Shown here piece by piece: positions 21,459 to 64,000 of a stretch of DNA of 64,000 nucleotides. The notes beneath the pieces were generated by a model. It was not told where the DNA came from. It was given only the letters and a program-made list of their open reading frames with translations, and did no database searches. The translations under genes were made by a program, and so were the position numbers. The stretch's first letter is position 1. Each line of letters starts with the position of its first letter. The DNA comes from Thermoplasmatota archaeon (lineage in GTDB: Archaea; Thermoplasmatota; E2; JACPAO01; JAHFTW01): positions 3,760 to 67,759 of the forward strand of contig JBMYRW010000002.1 in assembly GCA_049602735.1 (NCBI GenBank), written 5' to 3'.

Positions 21459-21484
21459 GAAGGGACTCGCACGCTCGTTGGCCT

Positions 21485-28186: not shown

Positions 28187-28240
28187 GCCAATGTGCGTGC
28201 CAAAAGGACGATTAACCGAGGGCGCAATAGTGGAGTTGGC

Positions 28241-29119: not shown

Positions 29120-29213
29120 GCGTCGCAGCCATGCGCAGCATTGCTGAACAAAGCTTACGGGCACCTGACCCCGTGCGATAACCCCTTCACCTTTCCCTCC
29201 AACTCTCTCTCCT

Positions 29214-37474: not shown

Positions 37475-37560
37475 CGTGCTGCAAGGTCGTCAAGAAAAGC
37501 AATGATCTGAACCCGTGGTCGCTTGAACCAATGTAGGGCAACGAGGAAGGTGTGCGGACG

Positions 37561-38745
37561 TCATGGCATGAAGGCTTCTCGAAGTTCCGTGGCCGTAGCG
37601 TCCATCGTGTCCGCGAGCGTGACATGGTCGCACTCCTGGAACACAAGAAAGTCCGGAAGGGCATCCGCAAGTGCTTCGGCCAGGTCGGCCAGATCGAGGT
37701 CTTCAACTTCGAGATGAAAGTGGAGGATCTCGAGACGGCGCTCCTTCCGGTGGCGCTTGCAGTCCATCCTTCCAACAAACCGCCCGGCGTACAGGAGGGG
37801 CAAGCAGAAGTAACCATAGCGGCGCTTGGCCCGTGGAACAAAGCATTCGAGGCGATAATCGAATCCGAAGAGTTCCAGCAACCGGTCGCGCTGGATGATG
37901 GCGTTGTCGAACGGCGACAGGATCTGAAGGCGGTCATCGACCGGCGGCGGTTCATCAAGATCCAACGTTGAAGAAGCCAGGAACTGCGACCCATCATCGT
38001 CCGTGACCAGTTCCAACTCGCCTGCATCAAGGCGCGACGCGACGTTCTCCTCAACGGCCGCCTTCAGGCCTGCCAATTTCCTTCCATAGGCAATGTGCTT
38101 CACCTGGAAAATGCCGTGGGCGCGCTCATGGCGAGCAACGAGGCGATCCGCGAACTCCTCCAACGTCGGGGCTTCCGAATCGACGCCAGCCGGCAAGACC
38201 CGTTCCGTGAGGTCGTACGTCTTCTGCCCTCCTTCGCGGCTTGCGACCATCAACGCGCCTTCCATGAACAATTGTTCGAGCGCCTGCTTGGCGGGCTTCC
38301 AATCCCACCAGCCACCACCCTTTCGTCCACCGGACTTGAAATCACTGGAGCGCAGGGGCCCCTCGGCACGGATCCGTCGCAGAACGCCGGCCATCATGTC
38401 CCGGTCCGGATCCTTGTACCAATGCACCTGCCCATCGCGAAGGGCGTGCTTGTACGGCAAGGAATAACGAAAATCCTCCATCGGCATGAGCGCGGCGGCG
38501 TGCGCCCAATGCTCGAACGCTTTGCCCTCCGCCAACAGCCGGTGCGTCATCGGCGAATCGAACCTGGGCACGCGTGAGAAGAGGACATGGTGGTGCGCTT
38601 GTTGCACCACGGAGATGGCATCGACCTGGACGTAGCCAAGATGCTGGAGGCAGCGCGTGGCCCCTTCGAAGCCGGACCCGAAACGGCTCGCCTGCTGCAA
38701 CCCTTGTGCTTGAAGGGCCAATCGGCCTAGATCTGCCTGCTTCAA
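37561..38745 (-). CDS. Winged-helix DNA glycosylase of the YcaQ/AlkZ family (HTH_42; interstrand-crosslink repair glycosylase-like)
   Basis: Close motif-level match to E. coli YcaQ: HHVLFSRV..EHWAHAAALMP, GWWDWKPAK, FDYRLECFVPRAKRRYGYFCLPLLYAGRFVGRMDCKRHR. Confidence 0.8.
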   Translation of the reverse strand: MKQADLGRLALQAQGLQQASRFGSGFEGATRCLQHLGYVQVDAISVVQQAHHHVLFSRVPRFDSPMTHRLLAEGKAFEHWAHAAALMPMEDFRYSLPYKHALRDGQVHWYKDPDRDMMAGVLRRIRAEGPLRSSDFKSGGRKGGGWWDWKPAKQALEQLFMEGALMVASREGGQKTYDLTERVLPAGVDSEAPTLEEFADRLVARHERAHGIFQVKHIAYGRKLAGLKAAVEENVASRLDAGELELVTDDDGSQFLASSTLDLDEPPPVDDRLQILSPFDNAIIQRDRLLELFGFDYRLECFVPRAKRRYGYFCLPLLYAGRFVGRMDCKRHRKERRLEILHFHLEVEDLDLADLAEALADALPDFLVFQECDHVTLADTMDATATELREAFMP

Positions 38746-38861
38746 GCTCTTCGATGGAGGGATGTTGGCGTTGTTCTTGGGGGTGTCTAACGGCTCTCGA
38801 AGGAACCTGCGGCGAGCGTAGCGAGGCGTCGGGTTGAGCGATTCGTTAGGAGGCGCCGCGG

Positions 38862-39599
38862 CTACCGGGCTTTGCCTTGGGTTGCCGAAAGGTGCACGGC
38901 GAGCGACTTGAGGAAGGCGGTGATACTGATTTCGGGCTCCTCGTCGATCCAGTCACCGCTGTCGGTTGCGGTGGCCGGCGACATGAGTAGCGCGGTGCCG
39001 TCGTAGAGGAGCTGAACCCGGAGCTTCTGGCAAAACAACACGTACCGCTTGGCGTACGATGCTTGGCCGAACTCGGGCAATGGGTCGAAGTGCGGCGAGA
39101 AAACCTTGACCGGCGCGCGCGATTTGGGAGCGTCTTCCAGGAGCATGAGCCACCCGAGCCACGGAGAGCTTGCCCCGAATGCGCCGTGGTCAATGGCTGC
39201 GCGCGTGTCGGCCGCCGTGCCCATGGCTTCCTCCGTGCGGTTGTTGAAGTTGTTCCCGAAGCTCGGGCCGACCTGGGACTTCAGCTCGATGGCGGCGAGG
39301 AGTTGGCCGTCGTGAAGGACCAAGAGATCCCATTGCTTGCTGGCCCGGTAGAATCCGGGCAACTCCAAACGGGATCCCGTGTGAACGGATTCCTCGGGGA
39401 GTCCGACGTGGTGGACGACTTCGCGGATGAGTTCGACGAAGCCGTCCATGTGCTTGCCCCCCGTGACTTGGGAGCGGGCACCGTAGTCTTGGACCGTGCC
39501 GGCTTCCACTTGCTTGGTTGCCTGTCCTTGGCGGGTTCGCCAGTAGTGGCGGACGGCATCCCGGATGTGTGCTTCCAAGTCGGCCGGCAGTAGGTCCAC
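38862..39599 (-). CDS. Type II restriction endonuclease-like protein (XhoI/PaeR7I-like, from recollection)
   Basis: 245 aa directly downstream of, and co-oriented with, the methyltransferase. Contains 'LLAAIELKSQVGPSFGNNFNNRTEE', which I associate with the XhoI REase family. Family assignment is from memory only. Confidence 0.55.
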   Translation of the reverse strand: MDLLPADLEAHIRDAVRHYWRTRQGQATKQVEAGTVQDYGARSQVTGGKHMDGFVELIREVVHHVGLPEESVHTGSRLELPGFYRASKQWDLLVLHDGQLLAAIELKSQVGPSFGNNFNNRTEEAMGTAADTRAAIDHGAFGASSPWLGWLMLLEDAPKSRAPVKVFSPHFDPLPEFGQASYAKRYVLFCQKLRVQLLYDGTALLMSPATATDSGDWIDEEPEISITAFLKSLAVHLSATQGKAR

Positions 39600-39606
39600 G
39601 TCTTAG

Positions 39607-41046
39607 CTAGGCCGGCACAGAGACTAAAGTCCGTTGTTTCGAGAACGCGGCCGGGACCGGAAGCCGGGCCAAGGTCTTGGATTGGAGGCGAAGGTGGCCC
39701 CCTGCCGCGCTCATGCAATGGCCTTCCAGCCAGGCTCGGGCCTTCTCCGAATTGAGATACTCGGCGAGCACCTCCAGTTGGTCCATGTCTTTGGGGATGA
39801 TGTAGTACACCGAATGCTTGGGCATGGAGCCCGTGCGGTCGATGTGGAAAACCGGAGTCCTCTGGATGTCCTGGACCACGATTTTGGGTCCTTCGAACTC
39901 CTTTGGGCGCGGTCGTTCGTGGTACTCATACCAGGCGCGGCTCCCCTTCGCGTGGCACGATCGCTTGACAAGCCGCTCGCGGTGGTGCGCCATGGCCAGG
40001 TACTCTGCCGCTGCGCCGAGAGAGGCCTCTGGCACAAGCCGTCCTGCGCCGTCGTAGGGGAACACCATCTGCGATCGGGGCTCGATGGCTTCGCCTTCAA
40101 CCGCCGGCAGATCACGACCGGACAACGCAGGCCGTACGTACTCCGCCGGAATCATGCGGGCTTCGTCTGGAGCCAGTTCGAAGACCGCGTCGGCTCCTGT
40201 GGCGACGCCTACACCGATCCGAGAGCAAACGTCGGCCAATGTCAGGACTCCTTCGTCAACGTCTGACTCCCCGAACAGGCAAAACCAGGGGGACTCGCAG
40301 AGGGATGCTTGCTCGACTGAACGGGACTCCCCCTTCCGCTCATCGTGGACCTGAACACGGTGCTTTGGACCGGGACGTTGGTTGAGTAGATGCGTGATCG
40401 CCGGGTACGTGACAAGGTCGGGGAATGCGTCTTCGGCCAGAATCACGACTCCGCGCAGCTCCCGTGTCGCAAGGAGCTTGCGTAGGCCACTTCCACTCCA
40501 GACCTGGGCGTACTTCTGGGGCGTGATGAAGCAGAGTTGACCCTCAGAAGCCAAGAGCCGCAATCCTTGTTCGAAGAACAGGAAGTAGAGGTCGTACCGG
40601 TTTACGGCGCTCTGGAATTGCCGGCGGTAGCGCCGGCGGTCAAGTTCAGCGAGCCCCTCCAAACGCACGTAGGGCGGGTTGCCGATGACCAAGTCGAAGC
40701 CGGCCTCCTCGAAGCGCGTGAAGTCGCACTCCACTACCAAACTGGCCAGGTCGGCATCGGTTGGCTGGAATCCATGCTCTGCCAGCACGTGCTGGGCCTG
40801 CTCGCGGCAGACTGACAACGGTTTGGGGTCCAACTCGACGCCGCGCACGCGCTCAACGACCCAACTCAAGGGGTGTCCGTGCGTCGCTGCGTAGCTGGCG
40901 TACTCTTCCAGGATTGGCAGGAAGAATGCACCTTCCCCGCAACCGGGGTCCAAGACGTACGCTCCACGTTCAGCCAGCTTTGGTAGGCTAGCCATCGCGA
41001 GCATCCGCTGGACAATCCCTGGTGGCGTCGGGTGCTGACCGATCAT
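39607..41046 (-). CDS. N6-adenine DNA methyltransferase (gamma-class, Eco57I/TaqI-like N6_Mtase)
   Basis: AdoMet motif I 'VLDPGCGEGAF' and catalytic motif IV 'VIGNPPYV' in gamma-class order. 479 aa. Confidence 0.85.
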   Translation of the reverse strand: MIGQHPTPPGIVQRMLAMASLPKLAERGAYVLDPGCGEGAFFLPILEEYASYAATHGHPLSWVVERVRGVELDPKPLSVCREQAQHVLAEHGFQPTDADLASLVVECDFTRFEEAGFDLVIGNPPYVRLEGLAELDRRRYRRQFQSAVNRYDLYFLFFEQGLRLLASEGQLCFITPQKYAQVWSGSGLRKLLATRELRGVVILAEDAFPDLVTYPAITHLLNQRPGPKHRVQVHDERKGESRSVEQASLCESPWFCLFGESDVDEGVLTLADVCSRIGVGVATGADAVFELAPDEARMIPAEYVRPALSGRDLPAVEGEAIEPRSQMVFPYDGAGRLVPEASLGAAAEYLAMAHHRERLVKRSCHAKGSRAWYEYHERPRPKEFEGPKIVVQDIQRTPVFHIDRTGSMPKHSVYYIIPKDMDQLEVLAEYLNSEKARAWLEGHCMSAAGGHLRLQSKTLARLPVPAAFSKQRTLVSVPA

Positions 41047-41580
41047 GGCATCCCAACTCTCGAAGCTAATAGAGTATTATAAGTGTCGAGGCGGGCGCGG
41101 CGAAACCACGCTGGGGGGTTGGAAGTGGCTTCGGCGACCTCGTCGAAGCCCCCTGGCTTGTGGCCCCAGGTCGGCTCCGCATGACCTCGTGACGAGGAGC
41201 TAGTTCACCCGTTGCACTGATTGTCATCGGGGCGGGTCTGGGGGCGTCCTACTGTGCCGGCGAGGAGTAATCGGACGTTAGCACGGAAGATTGAGTTTCC
41301 CTTGCCGCCGGGATGCAGTGGGTGGATTGCATTCCTGGGTTTGGTATTGGTTGGAAGTGGCGTCTGGCTGGCAGCGCGTCGGGAGGGGTAGGATCAGGCG
41401 CCACGAAACTAGTTGTTCAACAGTTCCGCTGAACAGGGGTCTACGAATTCCTCATTGCGTCGCGATGGGCCGGCGCGGCCCGTTTCTAGAGGCGACCAAT
41501 GTGGAACGAATGAAAATCCCGATGTTCAACGAGTTATTCCGCTGGCCGCATAACAGGAAGCCACGATTCCCACACGTGCC

Positions 41581-50419: not shown

Positions 50420-51106
50420 ATGCGCTGCGTCGCCCTGCTCTCAGGAGGCAAGGACTCTGTGGCGGCCATCGACGTCGCCCGCGGCCACGGCTGGGAGGTC
50501 CCCGTCGCCCTGTGCATCGTGCCCGCCGAGGACGACGCATGGATGTTCCACACACCCAACCTGGCCGTCGTGGACGCCGTCGCCCAAGCCCTGGACCTGG
50601 AGTTGGTCCGCGCGCCGTGCCGATCGGGCCCTGAAGAAGAGGTGGCCGACCTGGAAACCGCGCTCGCCCAGGTCAAGGAAGAGCACGATGTGGGCGCGGT
50701 CGTCTCCGGCGCCTTGGCCAGCGAATACCAACGCACCCGCATCGACGCCATCGGCCACCGCCTCGGCCTTGCGACCTTCGCGCCCCTGTGGCATGTCGAC
50801 CCGGACACCTACATGGACGGACTCGTGGCGGCCGGCTACGACATCCGCATCGCCCGCGCCGCCGCCGACGGACTCGACGAGACCTGGGCCGGCCGCCGGC
50901 TCGATGCCCAGGCACTCGCAGAGCTGCGGGCGAACCCGAGCCGGCCCCACATCGCCGGCGAAGGCGGCGAGTTCGAGACGCTGGTGCTGGACGGACCAGG
51001 CTACCAGAAGAGGATCGAAGTGGAAGAAGAAGAGGTGGAGGCGACCGCCAGCCGCTCCACGTGGCACGTCAAGCGGTGGCGGCTGTCTGCCGTCAGACGA
51101 TGTTGA
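50420..51106 (+). CDS. dph6: Diphthine-ammonia ligase (Dph6/MJ0570-like PP-loop ATPase)
   Basis: PP-loop 'ALLSGGKDS', and 'EGGEFETLVLDGP' C-terminal motif. GAGGA lies 5 nt before the ATG. Confidence 0.75.
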   Translation: MRCVALLSGGKDSVAAIDVARGHGWEVPVALCIVPAEDDAWMFHTPNLAVVDAVAQALDLELVRAPCRSGPEEEVADLETALAQVKEEHDVGAVVSGALASEYQRTRIDAIGHRLGLATFAPLWHVDPDTYMDGLVAAGYDIRIARAAADGLDETWAGRRLDAQALAELRANPSRPHIAGEGGEFETLVLDGPGYQKRIEVEEEEVEATASRSTWHVKRWRLSAVRRC

Positions 51107-52664
51107 TGGAGTAGACGTCGCTGTCGATCCCTTGGTTGCCTTCGAAGCTCACGGAGCCGCTGGCGCGGTACTTGCCGGCCAGCAGGGGAATCTCGGTGGG
51201 GACCTCAGCGACGCTCGGGAACACCTGCCAACAGCGGTTCAAGAACAGACGCGGCACCTCGAACTCGGCTTCGCCCAGGGCATCGGTCTGCTCGACGCTG
51301 CGCCAGCTGCGGCACGGCGTGTTCTCCAAGACGATGTTGACGGCGCCCGTGTTGCTCTGGTAGTCGACGTTCATGACGACATCCGCGTCCTCAATGGGGG
51401 TGCCGCTGAGGTACCGGACGTCCACGTCGATGACCGGCTGGCCGTAGAAGCGGTAGTAGCGCTGCGTCGCCTGGACGCGCACGTCCAGCTCATCCGTCAT
51501 GTCCACGCAGACGTCGTCGGTCGCCGTGAGGCCTTGACTGTCGTAGACGGTCAGCTCCAGGCATTGGGTGGCCAGGTCCGTGAACGAGCCGGTGTACGTG
51601 TCGGTCGTGCCGACGATGAGCCCCTCGTGGCGCCATTCATAGCTCGTGATGCCGCCGTCCTCCGGGTCGCTGCTGCCGCTGCCGTCGAAGGTCACGGATT
51701 CGCCGAGGTTGGCGAGCGTGTGGCTGGCGGAAGCCACCGCCGTGGGGGGCGTGTTGGCGTTGGGATCACTCGTACCGGCCTCGCAGCCACCCTCTGGGAC
51801 CGCTTCCAACACCATGTTGTCGAAGAACACAATGGAGTCGTACCACACGTCGTAGCGTTCATACAGGGAGAGCGTGAGCGTCTGGGGCACGCCGGGCTCG
51901 ACGGGGGTCTGGGCACGCAGGATCGGCGTGGCGTACCGGATGTGCTCGGGCGGCTGGTACCCGTACTCACCGTCCCTCCACGCCTGCTGGTTGCCCCAAG
52001 GCATGCCGGCCGTGGAGCCCAGCGCAGCAAAGCCGGTGGCATACTCGGAGATGGGATTGCCGTCGCCATCGACGGCGAAGTTGCCGGGCGCGTTCGTGCC
52101 TCCGAACTCCTCGAAGGAAAGCGGAGCCGGCCCCATTTGGGCGACGAAACCGTCCTCGAACCAGCGGCCATCAACGCCCTTGCGCCCGGGTTCTTCCTGG
52201 GTCACGAACTGGAAATCGAAGCGCAGGCAGTTGATGCCTGGCGCAGGCGTGAAATCGAAGGCGAGACGCGTCATGTCCTTGTCATCGACGGTCTCGTCAC
52301 CCTGCGTGGTGCCTCTGTACGAGCCGAGGAGCGACGGGAGCAGGATGTTCCCTAGCCCCCCGGTCGTCAACCAAGCAAAGCCCTCGCCGTGCAGGGGGAA
52401 CTCGCTGTACGGTCGCTCCGGGACGGCCGTCCCGTGCCCGTACCCCTGATAGCTCACGACGGCCGTCACCGAATCCAACGTCGTTGGATCGGCCGGCACG
52501 TGCTCCAACATGGAAGCCAGCGATGAGTCTCCGGACTGGAACGACGCTTGACCCAGCGGCGCCAAGGCAGCGGTCAGGAAAAGGACGGTGAGCGCCAAGG
52601 GCACGGCGCGGGCTCGAGCTTCCATGCTGGCCGCAGGCGACGTTTCTTTATTAACTAGGTACAA
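51093..52664 (-). CDS. Secreted protein with an N-terminal beta-sandwich (choice-of-anchor-like?) domain, a PKD domain and a C-terminal beta domain (paralog 1)
   Basis: Signal peptide. PKD signature 'VTFDGSGSSDPEDGGITSYEWRHEG'. About 70% identical over long stretches to 52721..54205. Confidence 0.8.
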   Translation of the reverse strand: MYLVNKETSPAASMEARARAVPLALTVLFLTAALAPLGQASFQSGDSSLASMLEHVPADPTTLDSVTAVVSYQGYGHGTAVPERPYSEFPLHGEGFAWLTTGGLGNILLPSLLGSYRGTTQGDETVDDKDMTRLAFDFTPAPGINCLRFDFQFVTQEEPGRKGVDGRWFEDGFVAQMGPAPLSFEEFGGTNAPGNFAVDGDGNPISEYATGFAALGSTAGMPWGNQQAWRDGEYGYQPPEHIRYATPILRAQTPVEPGVPQTLTLSLYERYDVWYDSIVFFDNMVLEAVPEGGCEAGTSDPNANTPPTAVASASHTLANLGESVTFDGSGSSDPEDGGITSYEWRHEGLIVGTTDTYTGSFTDLATQCLELTVYDSQGLTATDDVCVDMTDELDVRVQATQRYYRFYGQPVIDVDVRYLSGTPIEDADVVMNVDYQSNTGAVNIVLENTPCRSWRSVEQTDALGEAEFEVPRLFLNRCWQVFPSVAEVPTEIPLLAGKYRASGSVSFEGNQGIDSDVYSINIV

Positions 52665-52720
52665 CCAAAAGATGACGAACAGGAGAATGAAGGAAAAGGG
52701 ACGCCGTTCGGCGATCGTTG

Positions 52721-54205
52721 TTACAAGAGGGCGATGCCGTACCGGTCCGAGTCAGAGCCGCCGTTGCCGTCCTTGGCGACCGAGCCGACGGCGCGGTAGT
52801 CGCCGCCCGCGACCGGGAGCTGCGTCGGGACCTCGACGAGGCCGGGCAAGGCACCGAGGCAGCGCTCGACGACGAAGAACGGCACGTCGAACGAGGCGCG
52901 GCCGTTGCTGGCGGTGGTGCCGGAGGCGGACCAGTCGGGGCAAGGGGTCTGGCCGAGGATGCTGTTGACGGGCCCGATGTCGTTCGTGTAGGAGACGCTC
53001 AGGCCGACGGTGCCGCCGACCACGGGTTCACCGCTCTGGTAGAGCGCCTGCACGTGCACGCGCGGCTGCTGGTAGAACGCGTAGCTGTTGCGGCTGGCCC
53101 AGACGTCCACTTGCAGTTCGTCCGTGAGGTCCACGCAGACGGAGTCGACGCCGGTGGCTCCGAGGCTGTCGAAGACGGTGAGCTCCAGGCATTCCGTCGC
53201 CAGGTCGGCAAAGGAAGTGGCGTAGGTGGCCGCCGTGGAGACCAGGTTGCCGCCGTGGCGCCATTCATACGCAGAGACCGCGCCGTCCTCGGGGTCGCTG
53301 CTGGCGGTGCCGTCGAAGGTCACCGTCTCACCGAGGTTGGCCAGGGCATGGCTCGCCTGGGCCACGGCGGTCGGGGGTTCGTTGACGGCGATGACGCCAG
53401 GGTCGCAGCCCTCGGGGCCGGCGGCGCCGACGAACAGGTTGTCGATGAAGACCGTCGAGTCGTAGATGCTGTCGCCCTGGTCGAAGATCGACAGGAACAG
53501 GGTGTGGGCGCCCGGTCCCACGGGCGTCTGGGCACGCAGCAGGGCGCTGGCACCGTCATAGGAGGTGCCGGCGGCGTTGGCGGCGTTCATGGACGCGGCA
53601 CCGGCGGCGTTGATGCTGATCACGTCACCGTTCTCATCGAAGGCGAAGTTGTCCGGCGCCATGATGTCGCTGCCCATGGTCGTCCAGGTGGTGTCGTCCA
53701 GTTCGGCGATGAAGGCGTCATTGTAGTCCGTGCCCACCCATTCCGGGTATTCCTCCGAGAGGAAGCGGAAGTCGAAGCCGAGGCAGTCGCCGCCGACGGG
53801 CGTCGTGAAGCTGATGGCCAGGACGGTGACGTCCCAGTCCGTGTCGCCGCGGGCGTTGCCGCCGCCGAGTCCCACGCCGTCGCTGCCGGTGGTGCCGGTG
53901 GTGGCGAGCGCGGGGTCGCCGGTGGTCAAGATCGTGTACGTGTCGCCATCGACGGGGAAGCCGGCCAGGGGTTCGTCGCTGGTGGCATGGGGCATGCCGG
54001 ACGGCGGTAGCTCCAGGAACGTCGCGGCGGTCACGAGACCCAGTTGGGCCTCCATGGCGGCCACCAGGGCGTCAGGGTCAGCGGTCGGCGTCATGGCACC
54101 GTGGCCGGCAGGGGCCAACGCCAGGACGAGGGCGAGCGTCACGGAAACGGTCAGGGCGCGCCTCATGAGAATCAATCCACGCCGCTCGAAGTGGCGTCGA
54201 TTCAT
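52721..54205 (-). CDS. Secreted protein with an N-terminal beta-sandwich domain, a PKD domain and a C-terminal beta domain (paralog 2, tandem duplicate)
   Basis: Signal peptide. PKD signature 'VTFDGTASSDPEDGAVSAYEWRHGG'. Collinear similarity to paralog 1. Confidence 0.8.
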   Translation of the reverse strand: MNRRHFERRGLILMRRALTVSVTLALVLALAPAGHGAMTPTADPDALVAAMEAQLGLVTAATFLELPPSGMPHATSDEPLAGFPVDGDTYTILTTGDPALATTGTTGSDGVGLGGGNARGDTDWDVTVLAISFTTPVGGDCLGFDFRFLSEEYPEWVGTDYNDAFIAELDDTTWTTMGSDIMAPDNFAFDENGDVISINAAGAASMNAANAAGTSYDGASALLRAQTPVGPGAHTLFLSIFDQGDSIYDSTVFIDNLFVGAAGPEGCDPGVIAVNEPPTAVAQASHALANLGETVTFDGTASSDPEDGAVSAYEWRHGGNLVSTAATYATSFADLATECLELTVFDSLGATGVDSVCVDLTDELQVDVWASRNSYAFYQQPRVHVQALYQSGEPVVGGTVGLSVSYTNDIGPVNSILGQTPCPDWSASGTTASNGRASFDVPFFVVERCLGALPGLVEVPTQLPVAGGDYRAVGSVAKDGNGGSDSDRYGIALL

Positions 54206-54854: not shown

Positions 54855-57800
54855 TTGGTCTCGATGGCTGGAACATCCCTCCCCCTGCTCGCACGTCCCA
54901 AGACGCTCATTTCGCTGGTCCTGGTCCTTCTGATGGTGGCTCCCGCCTCCATCATCGGCGCCGTGAGCGCCCAAGAAGCGCCCGCCCCGGTCGAACCGAC
55001 GATCTCGGAGCTGCCCGACGCCGAACGCGAGGCGTTCGTCGACCTGTATCTCGACGTGTTCGTGAGGGGGGTCGTCCCCCTCAACGACACGCCCGGCGTG
55101 TACCCCGACTACACCGGCGAGCTACAACAAGAGCTCGCGGACGAGGTCCTGGAAGGCATGCGTGCCGACCCGACCTTCGCGCCCAACCTTGACCCCGTCA
55201 ACGCCGGCCCCGCGCTCGGCTTCTCCACCCCCGAAGACCCTCTGATCGACCGCGAGACCGGTGAACCCGTCACCCAGGACCGCGTCGACGACCTCTACCG
55301 CGCCTTCCTGCTCGGCCTCGTCTTCAACCGCGAGGTGTTCATCGACAACATCCAAGCGGTCGCCGAGGACACCATGTCCCCCGAGGACGCCGAGGCCCCC
55401 CCGGCCGACCCGGCCGGCACCAGTGAACAGGAGAACCCCATCCGCCGCGAGTTCTACGAAGAACCGCTGAAGCACTGGGGCAACACCGACCCCAACGCCA
55501 CCCAGCCGCCCTCCTTCGAAGGACTCGGCCCCGTGCTGCTCGAACAGCCCGGCATCCCCGAGGGCGTCACCTACAGCACCAACGTGGACGTCCCCGCGGC
55601 GCTCCGCGACCTCACGCCTGCCCAGGGACCAGCCACCCTGCCCATGGCGATGCCCACCGACCTCGTCCAGACCGTCGAACCCCCGCAGCTCACCGACCCC
55701 GAGCTGCTGGCCGAACCGTCCGACCTCGCCGCCGCCCTCCCGACCAGCCCCCTGGGCGCGGTGCCCGTGGACGCCTGGGACGACCCCAACTTCCAACTCC
55801 GTCTGCCCCCGCTCCTTGAGTTCCTGCGTGACCTTGCCAACCTCGCCACGCACGAGCTCTTCGAACTGATGGGCATCCTCGTCGACGACGCGGCCATCCC
55901 GGCCAAGATCAGCGGCAACCTGCAGCAGGTGGCCCCTGAGGTCTACGAGCACATCCTCGACCTCGATGTCACGGCGGCCGAGTTCGCCGGCAAGCTGGAG
56001 TCCCTCCTGCGCCCGGCCACCATCGTCGCCGACACCAATGCCCTGCCCGAAGACCTGGAAGCGCTGGTCGCCTCCCTCCTCGAACGGGCCAATGAACTGC
56101 AGTACGCCGGCACCGTCAACGGCGTCGACTTCGAAGGCACCTGGGGCATCCCGGAAGCCATCGACATCGACAGCGACGGCCTGGCCGACCTGCTCGTCCA
56201 GCTCACCCTCAGCCCGGCGGTCGTGCCCATCGAGGACGGCCTGCTGGAGATGCGCCCCCACCTCATCGTGGAGCGCACCAACGGCGTGTGGGCCCTCGAT
56301 GCCCTCGACGACCTGCCGGCCCTCCCGGGCGCACCCTTCCCGGTGCCCATGCCGGCCTCGACGCAATTGGCCGGCGCCCCGCTCACCGGCGAGCAGCTGC
56401 TCGTGGCCGGTGTGGCCACCAGCGTCCCCGCGCCTCTGCAACCGTTCCTCCCCAGCGGCAGTGCCTTCCCGTACGACATGACGGTGGCCTTCCCGCTGGC
56501 CGACACGGACGCCGTGGCGGTCTTCGACGCCCACTTCCCCGGCGGCGCTGACCACTTCGAAGCGATCCTCGAGGACCTTGGGCCCTCCGTGCAGATCGCC
56601 ACGACCGGGTCCCCGGGCGCCTTCGAGTTCCTGGCTTCCATCCTGCACGAGGGTGCCCCCGGTGGCGACACGTCCACCCTGTCCCTCGCCGGTGACCAGG
56701 CCCCCGAACTGCTGGGCGCTGCGGCCGCCATCAACGCCGCCGCCGGCACCAGCATGCTCGACCTGACGCCCCTGCTGCCCATGGACCTGGAGGTCGGGCT
56801 GCTGCGCGACGGCCCTGCCGGTCGCCTCGCCCTGGCCGCCAGCAGCCAAGAGATGCCCCCCACGACCATCGTGAACGAGGGCGCCGACCTCGCCATCGAG
56901 ACCGTCGAAGGGGCCAACCTCGCCATCGCGCGCCAGGACTTCCTCTCTGACGACACCTTCGACCACGCGGGCCTTGTCCTTGGCAACGCCGCTGCCCAGA
57001 TCGACGCCACGCTCACCGAAGCCGGCTTCGACATCGGCCTCGACGAACGCGGCGCCGACGTGCACGCCATCGCGGGCCTGGTCGACGACGGTGACTACGA
57101 GCACGCCACCTGGGCGTTCATCGAGAACGCCGGGTACGGCATCGCCATCGACACCTCCGCCGGTGGCCTCACCTTTGACAGTGACAGCCACGTGGACGAC
57201 CTGCGTGCCGTGCGCGCCAAGACGGCCGCTGCGGCCCTCATGGGCACCGTGAGCGGCTTCAAGGTCACCGACGAGCTGACCGCCTTCGGCATGCCCGGCG
57301 CCCAAGAAGCCAGCGTCGTCCCCCAGGACGGCGGCTTCGACATCCAGAGCCTCACCGACCGCGACGTGCCCTTCCTGCTGGACATCGAACAGACCACGGC
57401 CCGCGGCCTGGAGGCGGAGCGCTTCAGCTTCTCCAACCTGCCCGGCTCCCTGGCGGTGGATGTCCGCGACGGTAGCATCAACGTCGGTGGCAACTCCCCG
57501 ATCGACCTGGTGACCGGCCAGCTGTCCCGTCCCCTCGACGGCGCCGGCATGGACCCCACCAAGGGCTTCGTCGTCCTCGATGACCTCAACGGCCAGGCCT
57601 CCGTGGCCATGGACGAAGCCAACGTGAACGTCCAGGCCAGCGGCGACCTCGCCTCCGGTAACGTGCTCGCCTCCAACGTCATCGACGGCGTGGGCGACCC
57701 GCAGTTCATCGCCATCCCCGGCAACCACATGCTGGCCGACGTGGTCGGCACCGCCCGCCAGTACTCGGCCCAGGTGACCGGCATGGCCAGCCTCGGCGAA

Positions 57801-60800
57801 GGGCTGGGCGGCCTGATCAGCGGCCTCGCGGGCGGCCTGGGCGGCATCGCCCTGGAGTTGGCCCTCGACGGCCCCCTCTGCTGGAGCTTCGGTAAGGACG
57901 GCAACAAGCTGGAGATGTGTGTCAGCAACGTCCCGGACCGCCTCGAGATCGACCTGAACCTGGTGCCCAACCCGTCGCTGACCTACAGCGCCAGCGAAGA
58001 GATCGACGAGATCACCATCAACCTGCAGGCGCCCCAGGTGGACATCCTGTTCTTCGTGCACGGCCTCCCCGAGACCGTCACGATGGAGTTCACGCGCGCC
58101 GGCATGGACCTCATCATGAGCGACCGCATCGACGCCATCGGCATGATCGCGGAGCTCGCCGACACGACGATTACCGCCATCGCCGAATCGATCCCCTCCG
58201 AGCTCCACTTCGGTTGGGACAACGGCGGCATGGACCCCGGCATCCCCGCCGGTGACGCCATCGGCCGCGTCTACGCCGCTGTGAGCCGCCCCGGCTTCAG
58301 CTTCTTCGTGGACATCGAGCACCTGCCCCCTGTCCAGTTCGCTTGGAGTGACGGCAGCCTCGACCTGGACATGAGCGGCGACAAGATCGGCTCCATCGAG
58401 ATGCAGCTGCTGCTCAACCCCGCCGGCAACCCCGCCGGACGCCTGCAGCTGCTCGCCTTGGCAGAGGAGATCCCCGGCGTCCACGCCAACTGGGACCCCT
58501 TGGGCGGCGAGTTCGGCACCGACGGCAGCCTCGGCGGCATCACGCTCAAGATCGTGCTCGGCCCCACGGCAGCGCCCTCGTTGACCATGATCTTCGAGAT
58601 CCTCGATGTGCCCCAGATCGATGGGGCCTCCTGGGAGGACGGCCGTTTCGACCTGCCCCTGGTGGGTGGTCGCATCGGCAGCGTCACCTTCCAGTTCATC
58701 GCCGGAGACATGGACCTGTTCCTGCAGGCGCTCGGTGTGCCTGGCCTCTCGGCCCAATGGGACGACGCAGGCGGTTCCTTGTCTTCGGACGGGCCTCTTG
58801 ACAAGATCACGGCGTACTTTGCCAAGGGCACCAGCGCCCCGAGTATGAGCATCTTCTTCGAGATCGAGGACGTGCCTCAGCTCAACGGCATCACCTGGGG
58901 CGACGGCATCGACATGGACTTCTCGGGCGGTCGCATCGGTCGTATCGCGTTCCAGTTCGTCAGTGACCAGCTCTTCGACTCGGATGACATCGTGTTCTTC
59001 CTGGAAGCGTTGGGTCTGCCCGGGTTCAACATCGACATGAATGCCAAGACGGTGAGCACGACGGGCGTCCTGGACAGTCTGCTCATCTTCCTGCGCCGCG
59101 GTCCTGCACTTGATCCGACCCTGTTCGCCAGCCTGGAACTGGAGGGCGTGCCGGCCATCAACGCGGGCGCGTGGGACGAAGGCCTTGGCCTCGGGTTCAG
59201 CCCCGTCGATGCCCGCATCGACCGCATCAACTTCCTGTTCCTGAGCAACCCCGCCGGCACCGCCAGCGACCTCCTGTTGGACGTCACGGCGCTCGGTCTT
59301 CCTGGTATCTCTTTGGACACGACGACCGGCACGATCAGCACGACCAACGTGCTGGACCTGATCTCCCTGGACTTCCGCCTCGGCGACCTGCTGGACCCCA
59401 CGCTCCTGATGCTCTTCGAGCTGGAGGGCGTGCCCAAGATCGTGGCGGGTCTGTACGGCGAGGACGAGTTCAGTCTTGGCTTCTCGCCGGCCTCGGACAC
59501 CATCGACCGCCTGGAGCTCCTGTTCCAGGTGCGCACGCCGTCCACGCCCATCGAGAACGAACTGCAGATCCACCTGCTGGCCCACGGCCTGCCCGGCATC
59601 GTGCTCGGCTTCGAGGACCGCGCCGGCACCATCGGCACCAGCGCCACGTTGGACGACCTGCTGCTGCACTTCCACTTTGGTCCCCGCGGCACGCCGCTCA
59701 TCGAGACCAACCTGCTGCTGGACACGGTGCCTCAGATCACCGCCGGCGGTTGGACCGATGGCAGCTTCGACCTCGACCTGGCCGGCCGCATCGACCAGAT
59801 CCTCCTGGAGTTCATCCTGAACCCTGACGGCCTGGACGCGGTGCCCACGGATGCCAACGACCTGTACCTGATCCTCAACGCCGAAGGCGTGCCCGGCATC
59901 GACGTCGGCTTCGTCAACGGCGGCGGCACGATCGGCACCGACGACACCCTGGACCTCATCGACCTGCGGGCCATCCTTGGCCCCCGCAGCGGCCTCACGC
60001 TCACCGGCGAAGGCCTGAGCCTGCAGCTGACCATCGAAGGTGTTCCCGCCGTCACCGGCAGCTGGGACGACGAAGGCTTCGACCTGGGCCTCGCCGGCCG
60101 CATCGATGAGATCCTCCTGGAGTTCATCGTCGACCAGGCTGGCAGCGCCACGGACCTGTTCCTGCGCGCCTTCGCCCAAGGCATCCCCGGCATCGACCTG
60201 GGCTTCACCGACGGCGGCGGCACGATAGGCACCACCGGCACCTTGGACCTCCTGGACGTGCGCGCCATCCTGGGTGCCCGCAGCGGCCTGAACCTGGCCG
60301 GCACCGGCCTGTTCGCACGCCTGACGGCCACCAGCGTCCCCATGATCACCGCCGGTGCCTGGGATGACGCCAGCATGAACCTGGACCTGTCCGGCAAGAT
60401 CGGCGGTCTCACGCTGGAGTTCTTCGTCAACGAGGCGCTCAACGCCAACGACATCTACCTCCTGCTGGACGCCTCCGGCATCCCGACGCTGTCCTTCGCC
60501 AAGAGCGACACGGGCTTCGGTCTGGAGACGCCCGACGGGCTCGATTACGTCTCCCTGATCTTCCGCAAGGGTGTCTTCAACTACGACCCCCACGCGTACG
60601 GCCCCACCTTCGTGGGCGCCTGGATCCGCCCCGACGGTGTCGGCACCTCCTGGCCTGGCAACCCGCAGTTCGCGGTGTCGGCCAAGGTCAGCGGCATCAA
60701 GGAAGTGGTCTGGAGCACCAACGACGCCACGGAATCCCAGTCGCTGGACCTCGAGTTCACCGGCCTGCGGGACATCCGGGCCATCGTCGACCTGGAGACG

Positions 60801-62621
60801 GCGGCGTTCCTCGCCGAAGCCGACCTGAGCCTGACGAACCTGCCCGCAGACGTCTCGCTGGACATCACGCCCGACGTGGTGGGCTTCGCGAGCGCCAACG
60901 GCTGCGTCGGCTTCTCCTGCCTGGCCAAGACCCCTTGGCTACAAGGTAAGGTCAACGTGGGCACCCGTGGCGCCGCCAACGCCATGCCGGAGCCGTTCTG
61001 GCCCTGGCAGACCGTCAGCGAGCCGGGCTCCTTGTGCCCCCGCAACGCCGGCTTCGGGACCTACAACTCGCCCTGTGGCATCATGGGCAACACGTTCATC
61101 GACGTGCAGGACGGCGGCTTCGCGTCCAAGTGGAAGCTCGACCTGCCGCTGCCGGACGCCATCTCGTTCACCAAGAGCGCCGGTGACGGTGTGCCGACGT
61201 ACAGCCTGAACACGGGCTCCGTCAAGGTGGGCAAGCTGGACATCCGTGTCAACACGGAACTGCCCCTGCCCATCTACCCCCACGAGCTCAACCTCATGGC
61301 GGTGGCGACCGTGAGCAACCTGCCCACGAGCCTCTCGGTGGTGCAGGGCATGGGCAACGCGGCCGAAGGTGGCAAGCCGACGATCAACGTCAACACGGGT
61401 CAGCCCATCGACAAGATCTTCGTCGGCCTCCGTCTCGATGGCTCCTGGTACCATGACCCTGGACTCATCACCGTGAGCAACTCCAACATCAACGACAACG
61501 GGTTCCCGATCTGGCTGATGGTGGAGGATGTGCCCACGACGGTGAGCCTGTCCACCGGCAAGTCCAGCTACCAGACGTCCAACTGTCAGAGCTGCAACCC
61601 GCCGGTGCCGTTCATCAACTACAACGCGGCCAGCAACACGCTGGACGCCATGGTGTACACCAACATCGGCGACCTGTGGGGTCTCATCTCCCGCGCGGCC
61701 ATCGACCTCGCCGGCGATGTGATCCCGGACTGGCTCGAGGGCCTGGCCAACTACGACAGCCAGGGCCACCTGCTCATCCAGGCGGTCGACATCCCGTCCG
61801 ACGGCATCGCCCTCTTCAAGTCGGGCAACTCGTTCCACGTGGATGCCAGCCCCATCCTGAACCAGCGCCTCACGAAGTTCTTCGTGGACTTCCAGCTCAA
61901 GTTCAGCGACGGTGACGGCCGGCCCAGCTCCTGCATCATCTGCCTGGGCATCGCCGACCTGAAGTACTACTGGCACTACAGTTGGTGGTTCGGCATCGAG
62001 ACCCTGAGCCTCCTGTTGGAGGACCTGGGCAGCGTCGGCATCGACCCGGGCATCGAGAGCATCGTCAACATTGACGGGCGGTTGGTGTTCCACTTCCGTG
62101 CCGGTGCCGGCTTCGACTTCGGTGCCGGTCTGGAGTTCTACGTGGCCGGCATCCGGTTCTTGTGCGTCTGCATCGAGAGTCCGACGATCAGCTTGATCCT
62201 CGATCCAGGCTTCATCTCGTTCGAGGTGTTGTCCTGGAGTTGTTGTCAGTTCGATTACTTCTGGATCGGTTCACCGTTCCATGGAACAGGCTACTATTGG
62301 GCGCCAAGAGGTCACTTCTGTCTCTGTGACTGGCACTGGTACGCCAAGCTCGGCGGCACCTACCCCGGCAACTGGGGTTTCGACCTGCCCATCGCGATCC
62401 CACCGATCGTTCCGTTCCGCGGTCTGGATATCGCGTACGGAACGCATCACGTGTTCATGAATCCAAGACTGCTGCTCTGTGCGGGCGGTGATTGGCGTGA
62501 ACCAGAAGTGGTCTGCGTCTCCTTGGGACGACTGTACCCGACCGAGTTCATCGTGGTCTACGCGATGCTGCGTTACTTCAGCATCAGCATCTCCACGGGG
62601 AGCGAGCACCACCACCATTAG
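54855..62621 (+). CDS. Giant secreted cell-surface protein (2588 aa): signal peptide, ~1050-aa acidic N-terminal region, at least 8 tandem ~95-aa repeats, and a ~240-aa aromatic/Cys-rich C-terminal module ending in HHHH
   Basis: Uninterrupted ORF with protein-like, acidic composition throughout. Signal peptide LISLVLVLLMVAPASIIGAVSAQEAP. The opposite-strand 1823-aa ORF is antisense-type. A GGAGG Shine-Dalgarno for the next gene overlaps the stop. Confidence 0.9.
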   Translation: MVSMAGTSLPLLARPKTLISLVLVLLMVAPASIIGAVSAQEAPAPVEPTISELPDAEREAFVDLYLDVFVRGVVPLNDTPGVYPDYTGELQQELADEVLEGMRADPTFAPNLDPVNAGPALGFSTPEDPLIDRETGEPVTQDRVDDLYRAFLLGLVFNREVFIDNIQAVAEDTMSPEDAEAPPADPAGTSEQENPIRREFYEEPLKHWGNTDPNATQPPSFEGLGPVLLEQPGIPEGVTYSTNVDVPAALRDLTPAQGPATLPMAMPTDLVQTVEPPQLTDPELLAEPSDLAAALPTSPLGAVPVDAWDDPNFQLRLPPLLEFLRDLANLATHELFELMGILVDDAAIPAKISGNLQQVAPEVYEHILDLDVTAAEFAGKLESLLRPATIVADTNALPEDLEALVASLLERANELQYAGTVNGVDFEGTWGIPEAIDIDSDGLADLLVQLTLSPAVVPIEDGLLEMRPHLIVERTNGVWALDALDDLPALPGAPFPVPMPASTQLAGAPLTGEQLLVAGVATSVPAPLQPFLPSGSAFPYDMTVAFPLADTDAVAVFDAHFPGGADHFEAILEDLGPSVQIATTGSPGAFEFLASILHEGAPGGDTSTLSLAGDQAPELLGAAAAINAAAGTSMLDLTPLLPMDLEVGLLRDGPAGRLALAASSQEMPPTTIVNEGADLAIETVEGANLAIARQDFLSDDTFDHAGLVLGNAAAQIDATLTEAGFDIGLDERGADVHAIAGLVDDGDYEHATWAFIENAGYGIAIDTSAGGLTFDSDSHVDDLRAVRAKTAAAALMGTVSGFKVTDELTAFGMPGAQEASVVPQDGGFDIQSLTDRDVPFLLDIEQTTARGLEAERFSFSNLPGSLAVDVRDGSINVGGNSPIDLVTGQLSRPLDGAGMDPTKGFVVLDDLNGQASVAMDEANVNVQASGDLASGNVLASNVIDGVGDPQFIAIPGNHMLADVVGTARQYSAQVTGMASLGEGLGGLISGLAGGLGGIALELALDGPLCWSFGKDGNKLEMCVSNVPDRLEIDLNLVPNPSLTYSASEEIDEITINLQAPQVDILFFVHGLPETVTMEFTRAGMDLIMSDRIDAIGMIAELADTTITAIAESIPSELHFGWDNGGMDPGIPAGDAIGRVYAAVSRPGFSFFVDIEHLPPVQFAWSDGSLDLDMSGDKIGSIEMQLLLNPAGNPAGRLQLLALAEEIPGVHANWDPLGGEFGTDGSLGGITLKIVLGPTAAPSLTMIFEILDVPQIDGASWEDGRFDLPLVGGRIGSVTFQFIAGDMDLFLQALGVPGLSAQWDDAGGSLSSDGPLDKITAYFAKGTSAPSMSIFFEIEDVPQLNGITWGDGIDMDFSGGRIGRIAFQFVSDQLFDSDDIVFFLEALGLPGFNIDMNAKTVSTTGVLDSLLIFLRRGPALDPTLFASLELEGVPAINAGAWDEGLGLGFSPVDARIDRINFLFLSNPAGTASDLLLDVTALGLPGISLDTTTGTISTTNVLDLISLDFRLGDLLDPTLLMLFELEGVPKIVAGLYGEDEFSLGFSPASDTIDRLELLFQVRTPSTPIENELQIHLLAHGLPGIVLGFEDRAGTIGTSATLDDLLLHFHFGPRGTPLIETNLLLDTVPQITAGGWTDGSFDLDLAGRIDQILLEFILNPDGLDAVPTDANDLYLILNAEGVPGIDVGFVNGGGTIGTDDTLDLIDLRAILGPRSGLTLTGEGLSLQLTIEGVPAVTGSWDDEGFDLGLAGRIDEILLEFIVDQAGSATDLFLRAFAQGIPGIDLGFTDGGGTIGTTGTLDLLDVRAILGARSGLNLAGTGLFARLTATSVPMITAGAWDDASMNLDLSGKIGGLTLEFFVNEALNANDIYLLLDASGIPTLSFAKSDTGFGLETPDGLDYVSLIFRKGVFNYDPHAYGPTFVGAWIRPDGVGTSWPGNPQFAVSAKVSGIKEVVWSTNDATESQSLDLEFTGLRDIRAIVDLETAAFLAEADLSLTNLPADVSLDITPDVVGFASANGCVGFSCLAKTPWLQGKVNVGTRGAANAMPEPFWPWQTVSEPGSLCPRNAGFGTYNSPCGIMGNTFIDVQDGGFASKWKLDLPLPDAISFTKSAGDGVPTYSLNTGSVKVGKLDIRVNTELPLPIYPHELNLMAVATVSNLPTSLSVVQGMGNAAEGGKPTINVNTGQPIDKIFVGLRLDGSWYHDPGLITVSNSNINDNGFPIWLMVEDVPTTVSLSTGKSSYQTSNCQSCNPPVPFINYNAASNTLDAMVYTNIGDLWGLISRAAIDLAGDVIPDWLEGLANYDSQGHLLIQAVDIPSDGIALFKSGNSFHVDASPILNQRLTKFFVDFQLKFSDGDGRPSSCIICLGIADLKYYWHYSWWFGIETLSLLLEDLGSVGIDPGIESIVNIDGRLVFHFRAGAGFDFGAGLEFYVAGIRFLCVCIESPTISLILDPGFISFEVLSWSCCQFDYFWIGSPFHGTGYYWAPRGHFCLCDWHWYAKLGGTYPGNWGFDLPIAIPPIVPFRGLDIAYGTHHVFMNPRLLLCAGGDWREPEVVCVSLGRLYPTEFIVVYAMLRYFSISISTGSEHHHH
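58090..60600 (+). repeat. In-frame coding tandem repeats (period ~280-300 nt, i.e. ~93-100 aa; 8 clear plus ~2 degenerate units) within the giant gene
   Basis: Recurring units of the form 'hLxALG(V/L/I)PG(I/L)..(W)DD.GG.(I/L)..DG.LD.I.L.F..G.........(F/L)E(I/L)(E/D)(G)VP.I.(A)G.W.DG.FDL.L.GRI(D/G).I.(F/L)(Q/E)F'. The (V/L/I)PG anchor recurs near 58735, 59015, 59300, 59590, 59890, 60185 and 60480. Confidence 0.75.
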
Positions 62622-62625
62622 GAGG
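62621..62625 (+). promoter_or_regulatory. Shine-Dalgarno-like GGAGG, 8 nt upstream of the ATG at 62634
   Basis: 'cattaGGAGGaaccaacgATG' read directly from the sequence. Confidence 0.5.
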
Positions 62626-62633
62626 AACCAACG

Positions 62634-64000
62634 ATGACCCACGACAAACTCAACAAGAAGACCCCGCAGACGATCGCCGCCCTCGCCATGGCCTTCGCCC
62701 TGGTGATGGCGCCTGGGCTGGCCAGCGGCGCGCCCCTGGCCGGCGTACCCGGCGTGTTCGAGGTCGGCACGATCGATGCCCCCGGCGAATCAGGTGATTC
62801 AGGGGGGACAAGCAGCGAAACGGGGCCCTTCAACTCGGAGAGCTCGTCCGATTCGACCACGTGCATCATCCCCTGGTTCAGTGGCTGTCTCTTCGAGTTC
62901 ACGGAGCACGAAGAGGAGCAGCACGACCACTACGATTCGGAGTCCACGTACTTCGAGTGGGCGACCAACGACACGCGCAACGGCTACTATGTCAGCGTGC
63001 TCGACGGCGTCTTCTGGACCCGTGTCGCCAGCGGTGACTACGAGCACGAGGAGTCCTCCGGCGCTGACGCCGAGGGCAGCCACTACGACCGGGAGTACTA
63101 CGGCAACAACCTGGGCTTCTCCACGGAGAGCATCGAGGAGAGCGACTACTTCCTGGACAACGACTACGCCAGCTACGAGTCTGTCTCTCAGACGACGGCT
63201 GACGCCGGCTTCGATGCGGGCGCTGCTGGCGCCAGCGTCGGCCTGGACCGCCAACAGAACGGCCAGGAAGGCTCGTCCACGTCTGAGGAGTCCAACAGCT
63301 CCGAGCGCGAGGAGTTCAACCTGTTCGGCATCCCGATCCATGAATCGGGTGCTTCGGAGAGCCACAGCCTGGAGGAGGAGTACCAGCGCTACTGGAACGA
63401 GACGAGCCTCCAGTCGACCATCTTCATCGTCAACCCGGTGGACAACACCACGGTCAACATCGTGGGCCTGAGCCTGTCCAAGGGTGACGAAGAGGAGTCC
63501 GGCAGCTCCCAGGGCAGCGACTCGTCGTCGTCCTACACGGACGTGCTGGGCTTCAACGTCGTCGGCCAGGAAGACGAGTCGGACCACGATTCGTCCTTCT
63601 ACCGCTACAACGAGTGGCTGGACCTGACGGTGGACGTCATCGACGGCACCCTTCAGGGCAGCGTGCTCTACGAGCATGGCAACGAGGAGTCGGAGAGCTT
63701 CGAGCACGAGCGCAGCGTCACGGAAGTGGTCGGCCTGCCGTTTGGCAGCGAATCCACGGAGGACCAGGAATCGAGTTCCTCCTGGCGCCGTGCCACGATC
63801 GCCATCGACGCTGCTGAGGATGCTGGCTCCGTCGTGGTCTCCCATTGGAACGAAGATTCCGAGAGCGAGAGTCAGACGGAGGACGACACGATCGTCATCA
63901 TCCCGATCGGCAGCACGGGCGAGGAGGAATCCGAGCACCACTCCGACGGCTACGGCTTCGGCATCGAGCTGGGCGACGGCGAGGTGCTGTGGCTCACCGG
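62634..64000 (+). CDS. Secreted, extremely acidic Ser/Glu/Asp-rich protein (N-terminal 455 aa only; runs off the right window edge)
   Basis: Manual translation. Signal peptide MTHDKLNKKTPQTIAALAMAFALVMAPGLASGAP, then an S/E/D/Y-rich sequence with no stops to the window end. Not in the ORF track because there is no in-window stop. The listed ORFs 62776..63471(+) and 62799..63941(-) have spurious composition. Confidence 0.8.
   Translation, partial: MTHDKLNKKTPQTIAALAMAFALVMAPGLASGAPLAGVPGVFEVGTIDAPGESGDSGGTSSETGPFNSESSSDSTTCIIPWFSGCLFEFTEHEEEQHDHYDSESTYFEWATNDTRNGYYVSVLDGVFWTRVASGDYEHEESSGADAEGSHYDREYYGNNLGFSTESIEESDYFLDNDYASYESVSQTTADAGFDAGAAGASVGLDRQQNGQEGSSTSEESNSSEREEFNLFGIPIHESGASESHSLEEEYQRYWNETSLQSTIFIVNPVDNTTVNIVGLSLSKGDEEESGSSQGSDSSSSYTDVLGFNVVGQEDESDHDSSFYRYNEWLDLTVDVIDGTLQGSVLYEHGNEESESFEHERSVTEVVGLPFGSESTEDQESSSSWRRATIAIDAAEDAGSVVVSHWNEDSESESQTEDDTIVIIPIGSTGEEESEHHSDGYGFGIELGDGEVLWLT

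Follow-up and report, generated by a model that had tools for sequence, protein, structure and literature searches.

Little is understood of how uncultivated archaea keep giant proteins on their surface when these lack any known anchor. The closest described systems are the archaeal PGF-CTERM/archaeosortase A signals and the transmembrane anchors of S-layer proteins, which are found at the C-terminus of acidic surface proteins exported by Sec and are presumed to retain them. Here we analyse the C-terminal domain (hereafter the tail) of a giant secreted protein whose gene, fam0, lies at 54864..62621 on the forward strand of a 64,000-nucleotide stretch of Thermoplasmatota archaeon DNA (assembly GCA_049602735.1, contig JBMYRW010000002.1, positions 3,760 to 67,759). 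This whole stretch is referred to as the window, and coordinates are counted from its first letter. The tail comprises 251 residues, from RLTKFFVDFQLKF to a terminal HHHH (61866..62618, +), and is the most conserved, family-defining part of the protein. Like the archaeal anchors it sits at the C-terminus of a Sec-secreted acidic protein, presumably for retention. It differs from them in being an apparently globular region of 250 residues, rich in cysteine and aromatic residues, that ends in H-x-H, is confined to one family and has no PGF motif, hydrophobic helix or basic tail.

Further afield, the dockerin-cohesin and SLH systems provide an analogy for how the tail could work, namely as the terminal domain of a giant protein joined to the product of a neighbouring gene that could itself attach to the membrane. 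Dockerins also bind metal (Ca2+), a second likeness, but no similarity of sequence or fold to the tail was detected, and an interaction of the tail is suggested by gene pairing. The C-terminal domains (CTDs) of the type IX secretion system (T9SS) are likewise conserved and beta-rich, and very large secreted proteins carry them at their extreme C-terminus; they are bacterial, span ~80-100 residues and occur on many unrelated cargoes, whereas the tail is archaeal, ~250 residues long, apparently disulfide-rich and restricted to one family. HypB, SlyD, UreE and CooJ handle metals; they are cytoplasmic chaperones of small size, and the histidine runs at their C-termini are long but poorly conserved. 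The tail shares with them a C-terminal histidine run that could plausibly bind Ni, Zn or Cu, but what it conserves is H-x-H alone, on a protein predicted to be extracellular, where it is joined by a third invariant histidine within what should be a folded domain.

A preliminary description of the window had taken the last ~240 residues of the giant protein for a compositionally alien module that might have been acquired recently as a 3' fusion, and had proposed looking for homologous tails in related genomes, plotting GC content along the gene and checking for an assembly join near 61.9 kb. The relatives contradict the alien origin. At least 15 related giant proteins, from independent assemblies of Thermoplasmatota metagenome-assembled genomes (MAGs) from sand and soil, carry the same tail at their extreme C-terminus and colinear with the rest of the protein, and it is the best-conserved region. 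The orthologue P0002 (2586 residues, MAG GCA_041624075.1) matches the fam0 protein over its full length with 52% identity and has a tail ending in STGSTHHHH. Identity between the two ranges from 38 to 66% through the body and reaches 64-70% over the last 500 residues, and the alignment is free of gaps across residues 2300-2400, where the supposed junction would fall. An exhaustive phmmer search with the last 300 residues against 1.84 billion representative proteins returned four clusters, all of them full-length homologues belonging to one giant family; in the three further clusters, P0003 (1840 residues), P0004 (3156 residues) and P0005 (1864 residues), the match extends to the extreme C-terminus, and the N-terminal region is shared as well. 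A scan of GTDB species genomes identified 10 tail loci, every one of them again in a sand or soil MAG of Thermoplasmatota, and a single MAG can hold as many as four paralogues. Scans of JGI metagenomes and of IMG/VR for the tail yielded no relatives, and no relevant paper on giant Thermoplasmatota proteins emerged from a literature search. Taken together, these results indicate that the tail is almost certainly native and conserved, and that it belongs to a family of giant secreted proteins specific to this lineage.

NCBI calls fam0 from an ATG at 54864, giving a product of 2585 residues that is recorded as a hypothetical protein of a Thermoplasmatota archaeon MAG (ACPGQL_00970, on a 107-kb contig); counted mechanically from the first TTG (54855), the open reading frame (ORF) spans 54855..62621 (+) and 2588 codons. 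The protein is strongly acidic, with 351 Asp and Glu residues against 111 Lys and Arg. A probable Sec signal peptide is encoded at 54864..54971 (+), judging from its sequence and a hydrophobic peak of 2.59 at residues 16-34; the cleavage site, MAGTSLPLLARPKTLISLVLVLLMVAPASIIGAVSA-QE, was placed by eye. The signal peptide of the fam0 product is predicted to be cleaved off, and the protein itself has no membrane anchor. The N-terminal boundary of the tail was set at ~61866 because P0004 has a beta/gamma-crystallin-type domain inserted directly before its homologue of RLTKFFVDFQLKF (RLKRFFADFQLRF in P0004). This relative (Logan SRR33394504) contains many such inserted domains of the beta/gamma-crystallin or peptidase-inhibitor-I36 type, including the one preceding the tail.

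The composition of the tail is distinct, as had been noticed from the sequence. Comparing the last 240 residues with the remaining protein, cysteine rises from 0.3 to 4.2%, tryptophan from 1.1 to 4.2%, tyrosine from 1.2 to 5.4%, histidine from 1.1 to 4.6% and phenylalanine from 4.6 to 7.9%, so that Cys, Trp, Tyr and His are enriched 4- to 14-fold. The segment holds 10 cysteines rather than the ~14 first estimated. The two peptides cited as examples of its composition, KYYWHYSWWFGIE and SWSCCQFDYFWIGSPFHGTGYYWAPRGHFCLCDWHWYAK, are both present within the fam0 protein, as is the ending ...STGSEHHHH*, with histidine codons at 62607-62618 and the stop at 62619-62621. The difference from the repeats that precede it is real, but it does not arise in a single abrupt step, since cysteine and aromatic residues are already present from about residue 2000 onwards.

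To define the conserved positions we used an alignment of 13 tails (A2) that are 36-69% identical to the tail of the window, with residues numbered along the last 400 residues of the protein. Among the residues invariant in all 13 are four cysteines and three histidines: C249 and C251, which form a CxC motif (CVC; 62163..62171, +); H306, within CDWHW (62334..62336, +); the pair C354 and C366, within LLCAGGDWREPEVVCV (62478..62516, +); and H398 and H400 at the C-terminus. C303 is present in all but one sequence, and the motifs DPGFIS[FY], YPGNWxFD and PFRGL are conserved. Both cysteines of a CxxC motif (CIIC, C172 and C175; 61932..61943, +) occur in 12 of the 13 members and are lost together in P0004. 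The number of cysteines per tail is always even: nine members have 10, three have 8 and one, P0004, has 4. Losses are pairwise, and one position has been swapped, from C301 to C287. Since the counts are even, the losses come in pairs, a partner position has moved and the protein has a signal peptide, the cysteines point to structural disulfides. We conclude that the tail is probably an extracellular domain stapled by disulfides, with a putative pairing.

The terminal histidines follow a similar pattern. Every one of the 15 tails that were read, the 13 aligned and two inspected directly, ends in H-x-H, in the form of HHHH, HRH, HTH, HKH or HDH, and one of them carries two extra residues (HDHWF). 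The HHHH version is limited to the window and its two closest relatives, L001 and L002 (L numbers denote tail loci), and the latter two, which come from independent MAGs, encode THHHH. Judged by these sequences, the four histidines of the window (CAC CAC CAC CAT; 62607..62618, +) are a subclade variant of the family-wide terminus and not a chance occurrence, with the last three residues corresponding to the invariant H-x-H-COOH. A vector-derived His-tag was ruled out, as there are only four histidines, a native ribosome-binding site and a syntenic gene follow, and THHHH is found in independent MAGs. The preliminary description had also considered a metal-binding module, and this idea is plausible because three histidines, the terminal H-x-H among them, are invariant. 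H306, H398 and H400 may form a His3 metal site that makes use of the free C-terminus, although we put this forward tentatively and the binding of metal itself is putative.

The tail contains no hydrophobic helix, and the earlier view that it matches no recognisable anchor was borne out. A PGF-CTERM/archaeosortase signal was rejected, since the last 40 residues (...EFIVVYAMLRYFSISISTGSEHHHH) include no PGF, no basic tail and no 19-residue window with a Kyte-Doolittle score of 1.6 or more; NCBIfam models scanned at E <= 1 gave no match, of the archaeosortase type or otherwise. An LPXTG/sortase signal was likewise rejected, since the tail has neither the motif nor a hydrophobic stretch and matches nothing in Pfam or NCBIfam. 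Pfam searched at E <= 10 returned nothing for any of the 13 tails, and the giant protein as a whole has no sequence match in Pfam, NCBIfam or the PDB. Because no recognised archaeal or bacterial anchor, sorting signal or described domain family was matched, we regard the tail as a domain that has not been described before, carried by a rare, lineage-specific and likewise undescribed family of giant archaeal surface proteins.

Structure prediction gave limited guidance. AlphaFold2 models of 400 and 255 residues, built from alignments of five sequences, had mean predicted local distance difference test (pLDDT) scores of 43.8 and 44.7, falling below 35 across the last 140 residues that are rich in Cys and His. 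Both of these low-confidence models are all-beta with long hairpins. A Foldseek search of the PDB with the pLDDT 44 model listed the pores OmpA, leukocidin and gasdermin, which were dismissed (best E 0.05, template modelling score below 0.12), as they merely mirror the long hairpins of an unreliable model. A search of the PDB with a profile of the tail listed only the Rdx/SelW-like protein 2oka, at E 0.95, and this match was dismissed as chance; the CxxC of the tail family is 3-6 residues out of register with the CTQC of 2oka, and P0004 has no CxxC at all.

The lower-GC codons that had drawn attention to the end of fam0 were examined along the reading frame, in which GC at third codon positions (GC3) is 0.90 overall. 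A synonymous shift does exist: the last 175 codons have a GC3 of 0.754, where the synonymous usage of the body would predict 0.909. Its position was misjudged, as there is no abrupt switch at 61900. GC3 stays at 0.93-0.96 up to ~nt 62050, and the drop, from ~0.93 to 0.67, is confined to a trough of 110 codons at 62202..62531 (+; GC3 0.673), after which the last 40 codons return to 0.82. The onset of the trough thus lies ~150-340 nt within the tail domain and not at its boundary near 61866. Only 0.7% of other 110-codon windows within the genes of the window reach a GC3 as low. Total GC in this region is 0.57-0.60, compared with ~0.68 across the gene, and GC at first codon positions (GC1) declines to ~0.46 in the tail because its residues are rich in Phe, Tyr, Trp, Cys and Ile. 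The shift across the tail favours TGT, GAT, GGT/GGA, CCA, CAT, AGA/CGT and TTG, and the trough itself is rich in TGT, GAT, GGT, CCA, CAT, AGA and TTG. Of the codons originally listed as signs of lower GC, TGT therefore belongs to the shift, whereas TTC (100%) and TAC (90%) are the usual preferred codons and TGG is the sole codon for tryptophan, so that these three reflect amino-acid composition.

The trough is not peculiar to the window. Over homologous columns, GC3 in the trough compared with the body is 0.61 against 0.82 in L001, 0.69 against 0.84 in L002, 0.55-0.64 against 0.86 in L005, 0.50-0.59 against 0.77 in L007 and 0.54 against 0.83 in L009; the distant members L010 and L011 have no trough. 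Identity at synonymous sites in the tail between the gene of the window and those of L001 and L005 is 0.49-0.50, which is not above that of the body, and recent exchange is excluded because it is not raised there. The GC3 trough is thus a recurrent codon-usage feature at the level of the family and not a sign of foreign origin; as the synonymous sites are not conserved, it is probably kept as composition rather than as sequence. Because relatives carry the same tail, with low GC3 recurring in five of them, the reading as an alien fusion fails. Translational coupling to the next gene was considered as a cause and rejected, since L004 and L009 show the trough without a downstream partner while L010 and L011 have the partner without the trough. 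One guess would be that the trough slows translation where the product has difficulty folding.

The end of fam0 is tightly joined to a second gene. Its stop codon overlaps a Shine-Dalgarno-like TAGGAGGA, and with a short spacer this junction occupies 62619..62633 (+). The partner gene, fam1, starts 12 nt after the stop and is cut by the end of the window (62634..64000, +). Its product has a signal peptide and is secreted, extremely acidic and rich in Ser, Asp and Glu, with 50% identity to the protein encoded downstream of P0002 (the L001 downstream protein). Full-length relatives of fam1 are 880-1450 residues long and have a conserved hydrophobic block at residues ~683-770; the version in L012 extends to 3782 residues with matches to FG-GAP_2 and Big_3_5. 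Apart from this extension, fam1 has no match in Pfam, NCBIfam or the PDB, a PDB match to CdnD at E 0.052 having been dismissed as chance.

Clustering of neighbouring genes placed fam1 directly 3' of the tail in the window, L001, L002, L005, L007, L010 and L011, with fam1 loci including L001:17775-20729, L010:7961-10603 and L012:13623-21595. Junctions of the GGAGG type, 12-27 nt long, were found in L001/L003, L002, L005, L007, L010, L011, L012 and the P0004 contig. In the distant P0005, fam1 follows after a 27-nt gap and is 40% identical to that of L010, and in P0004 the stop is followed after 12 nt by an 886-residue gene that is a candidate fam1. The partner thus follows in most members, and the pair is kept even between members whose tails are just ~40% identical.

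How these observations are best explained was weighed against several alternatives. A recent 3' fusion, or an assembly chimera in which the gene ends in foreign DNA of lower GC, would account for the local fall of GC3 to 0.67 and of total GC to 0.57-0.60 from ~0.68. It leaves unexplained why at least 15 relatives from independent assemblies have the tail in colinear position, why this is the most conserved region with no alignment gap at residues 2300-2400, why the trough recurs in relatives and sets in ~150-340 nt within the domain, and why synonymous identity is not raised while the downstream partner is syntenic; we consider it extremely improbable. Hardly more credible is a polymorphic toxin, in which a giant scaffold bears a swappable C-terminal toxin of deviant GC and is followed by an immunity gene. 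Systems such as CdiA, Rhs and MafB do resemble fam0 in that a giant repeat protein is secreted, its C-terminal module deviates in GC and the adjacent gene is closely coupled, but this likeness is superficial. The module here is conserved and not polymorphic (64-70% identity against 52% overall), it occurs on a single scaffold family, matches no Pfam toxin family and was not seen to be replaced between strains, and the next gene encodes a huge secreted acidic protein of 880-3782 residues with a signal peptide instead of a small cytoplasmic immunity protein. A generic sorting or secretion domain akin to the T9SS CTD or an archaeosortase signal, possibly removed after use and with H-x-H in a recognition tag, fits the strictly C-terminal position, the invariant extreme terminus and the lack of any other anchor in the protein. 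Yet such tags sit on many unrelated cargoes, while the exhaustive phmmer search and the genome scan place the tail on one family alone; 250 residues with five putative disulfides are large for a tag, there is no transmembrane helix, basic tail or match to an archaeosortase-type model, and no candidate sorting enzyme is conserved beside the tail at the loci examined, all of which makes this explanation improbable.

The tail might instead bind a membrane or lipoglycan directly, in line with the membrane- or S-layer-insertion module considered in the preliminary description, through amphipathic beta-hairpins rich in Trp, Tyr and Phe that lie on or in the membrane of an archaeon without a cell wall. 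Strands of alternating hydrophobic and polar residues (e.g. RLVFHFRAGAGFDFGAGLEFYVAG), the high aromatic content, the long hairpins of both low-confidence models and the pores among the nearest, non-significant Foldseek neighbours could be read in this way, and yet those Foldseek matches are meaningless, the alternating pattern is equally typical of soluble beta-sandwiches, hydropathy is marginal (1.65) and five disulfides are unusual for membrane-inserted barrels, so that we think direct insertion quite unlikely. We also doubt, though a little less strongly, that the tail is a functional head, that is, an extracellular catalytic or ligand-binding domain that depends on metal or is redox-active through its CxxC. 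The three invariant histidines, the CxxC and CxC motifs and the weak profile match to 2oka (E 0.95) are compatible with such a role. That match is non-significant and has its cysteines out of register, no Pfam family was matched at E <= 10 in the 13 members, the CxxC cannot be essential as P0004 does without it, and the even cysteine numbers suit structural disulfides.

We tentatively favour a native, disulfide-stapled C-terminal domain by which the giant protein would dock at the surface of the cell, most simply via fam1. The tail would be a domain of ~250 residues, probably all-beta and aromatic-rich, with up to five disulfides. It would emerge last from the Sec channel and lie next to the cell. 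Folded around its disulfides, perhaps with a His3 metal clasp, it would keep the giant protein at the surface through contact with the co-made fam1 product, whose hydrophobic block could sit within the membrane, or with some other part of the envelope. Given the conserved gene pairing, the lack of an anchor in the tail and the signal peptide and hydrophobic block of fam1, a docking or anchoring role of the tail is possible, though less than likely. More speculative still, and unlikely in its complete form, is a two-component surface system of these possibly wall-less Thermoplasmatota, in which the disulfide-rich docking domain, with a metal clasp made of H-x-H and the third histidine, would settle on a membrane-embedded acidic partner.

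Several observations weigh against docking via fam1. In the subclade of L004, L006, L008 and L009 the tail is present with no fam1 directly downstream, and the same is true of the first copy of the tandem pair in L011. In fam1 itself, the hydrophobic block includes Asp and is borderline for transmembrane helices. Because both AlphaFold2 runs were of low confidence, the fold, the pairing of cysteines and the geometry of the histidines stand as predictions; the interaction, metal binding and surface location have likewise been read from sequence, and conservation of the tail would fit an enzymatic or ligand-binding head equally well.

The family offers a compact candidate for an attachment or assembly domain, with a clear signature in the form of an even cysteine set, three invariant histidines, a terminal H-x-H and a partner gene that looks obligatory. 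If correct, the two-component clasp would represent a new principle of archaeal anchoring that differs from both the lipid anchors of PGF-CTERM proteins and transmembrane tails. We note that a local GC3 trough combined with an odd amino-acid composition need not mean horizontal transfer or mis-assembly; here both are native and conserved. As the family is rare, being limited to a few MAGs from sand and soil, its immediate impact is modest.

Upstream of the tail, residues ~1130-1880 of the giant protein (window ~58200-60500) consist of degenerate repeats of ~95 residues each, with the pattern ...GVPGI...W...GGT[IL][GS]T...LD...VP.I...W...F.L.L.G.RI.... These repeats have no Pfam match, and their number varies among family members of 1840-3726 residues. 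Directly upstream of fam0 and divergent from it, two paralogous proteins of ~500 residues are encoded at 51093-54205 (-), each with a weak match to a PKD domain. A third conserved gene, fam2, encodes ~430 residues on the opposite strand and is often found near fam0 and fam1; it lies past these genes at L001:21064-22350 (-), L002:7052-8374 (-), L005:14502-15788 (-) and L008:7241-8539 (-) and has no Pfam match. In some loci tandem copies of fam0 are found beyond fam2, which suggests multi-copy islands of giant genes.

The remainder of the window is ordinary archaeal chromosome, including genes for aIF5B, TiaS, NDK, a class II ribonucleotide reductase, PurD and an ABC transporter; scans of the window for tRNAs and Rfam families found nothing. 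A region at 37500-41500, with GC of 0.58-0.63 against ~0.68, holds an AlkZ-like DNA glycosylase (37561-38745, -) and a restriction-modification methylase of the Eco57I/TaqI type (39607-41046, -), and may be an acquired island. The lowest GC of the window (0.50-0.57) is found just past the NDK gene, at 28001-29120, where a 211-residue ORF (28484-29119, +) has no Pfam match. In an ORF for a reprolysin-like (M12B) metallopeptidase at 21071-22759 (+), GC3 falls to 0.53 close to the 5' end, below the trough of the tail; this dip may reflect a start called too far upstream or another local anomaly of codon usage.

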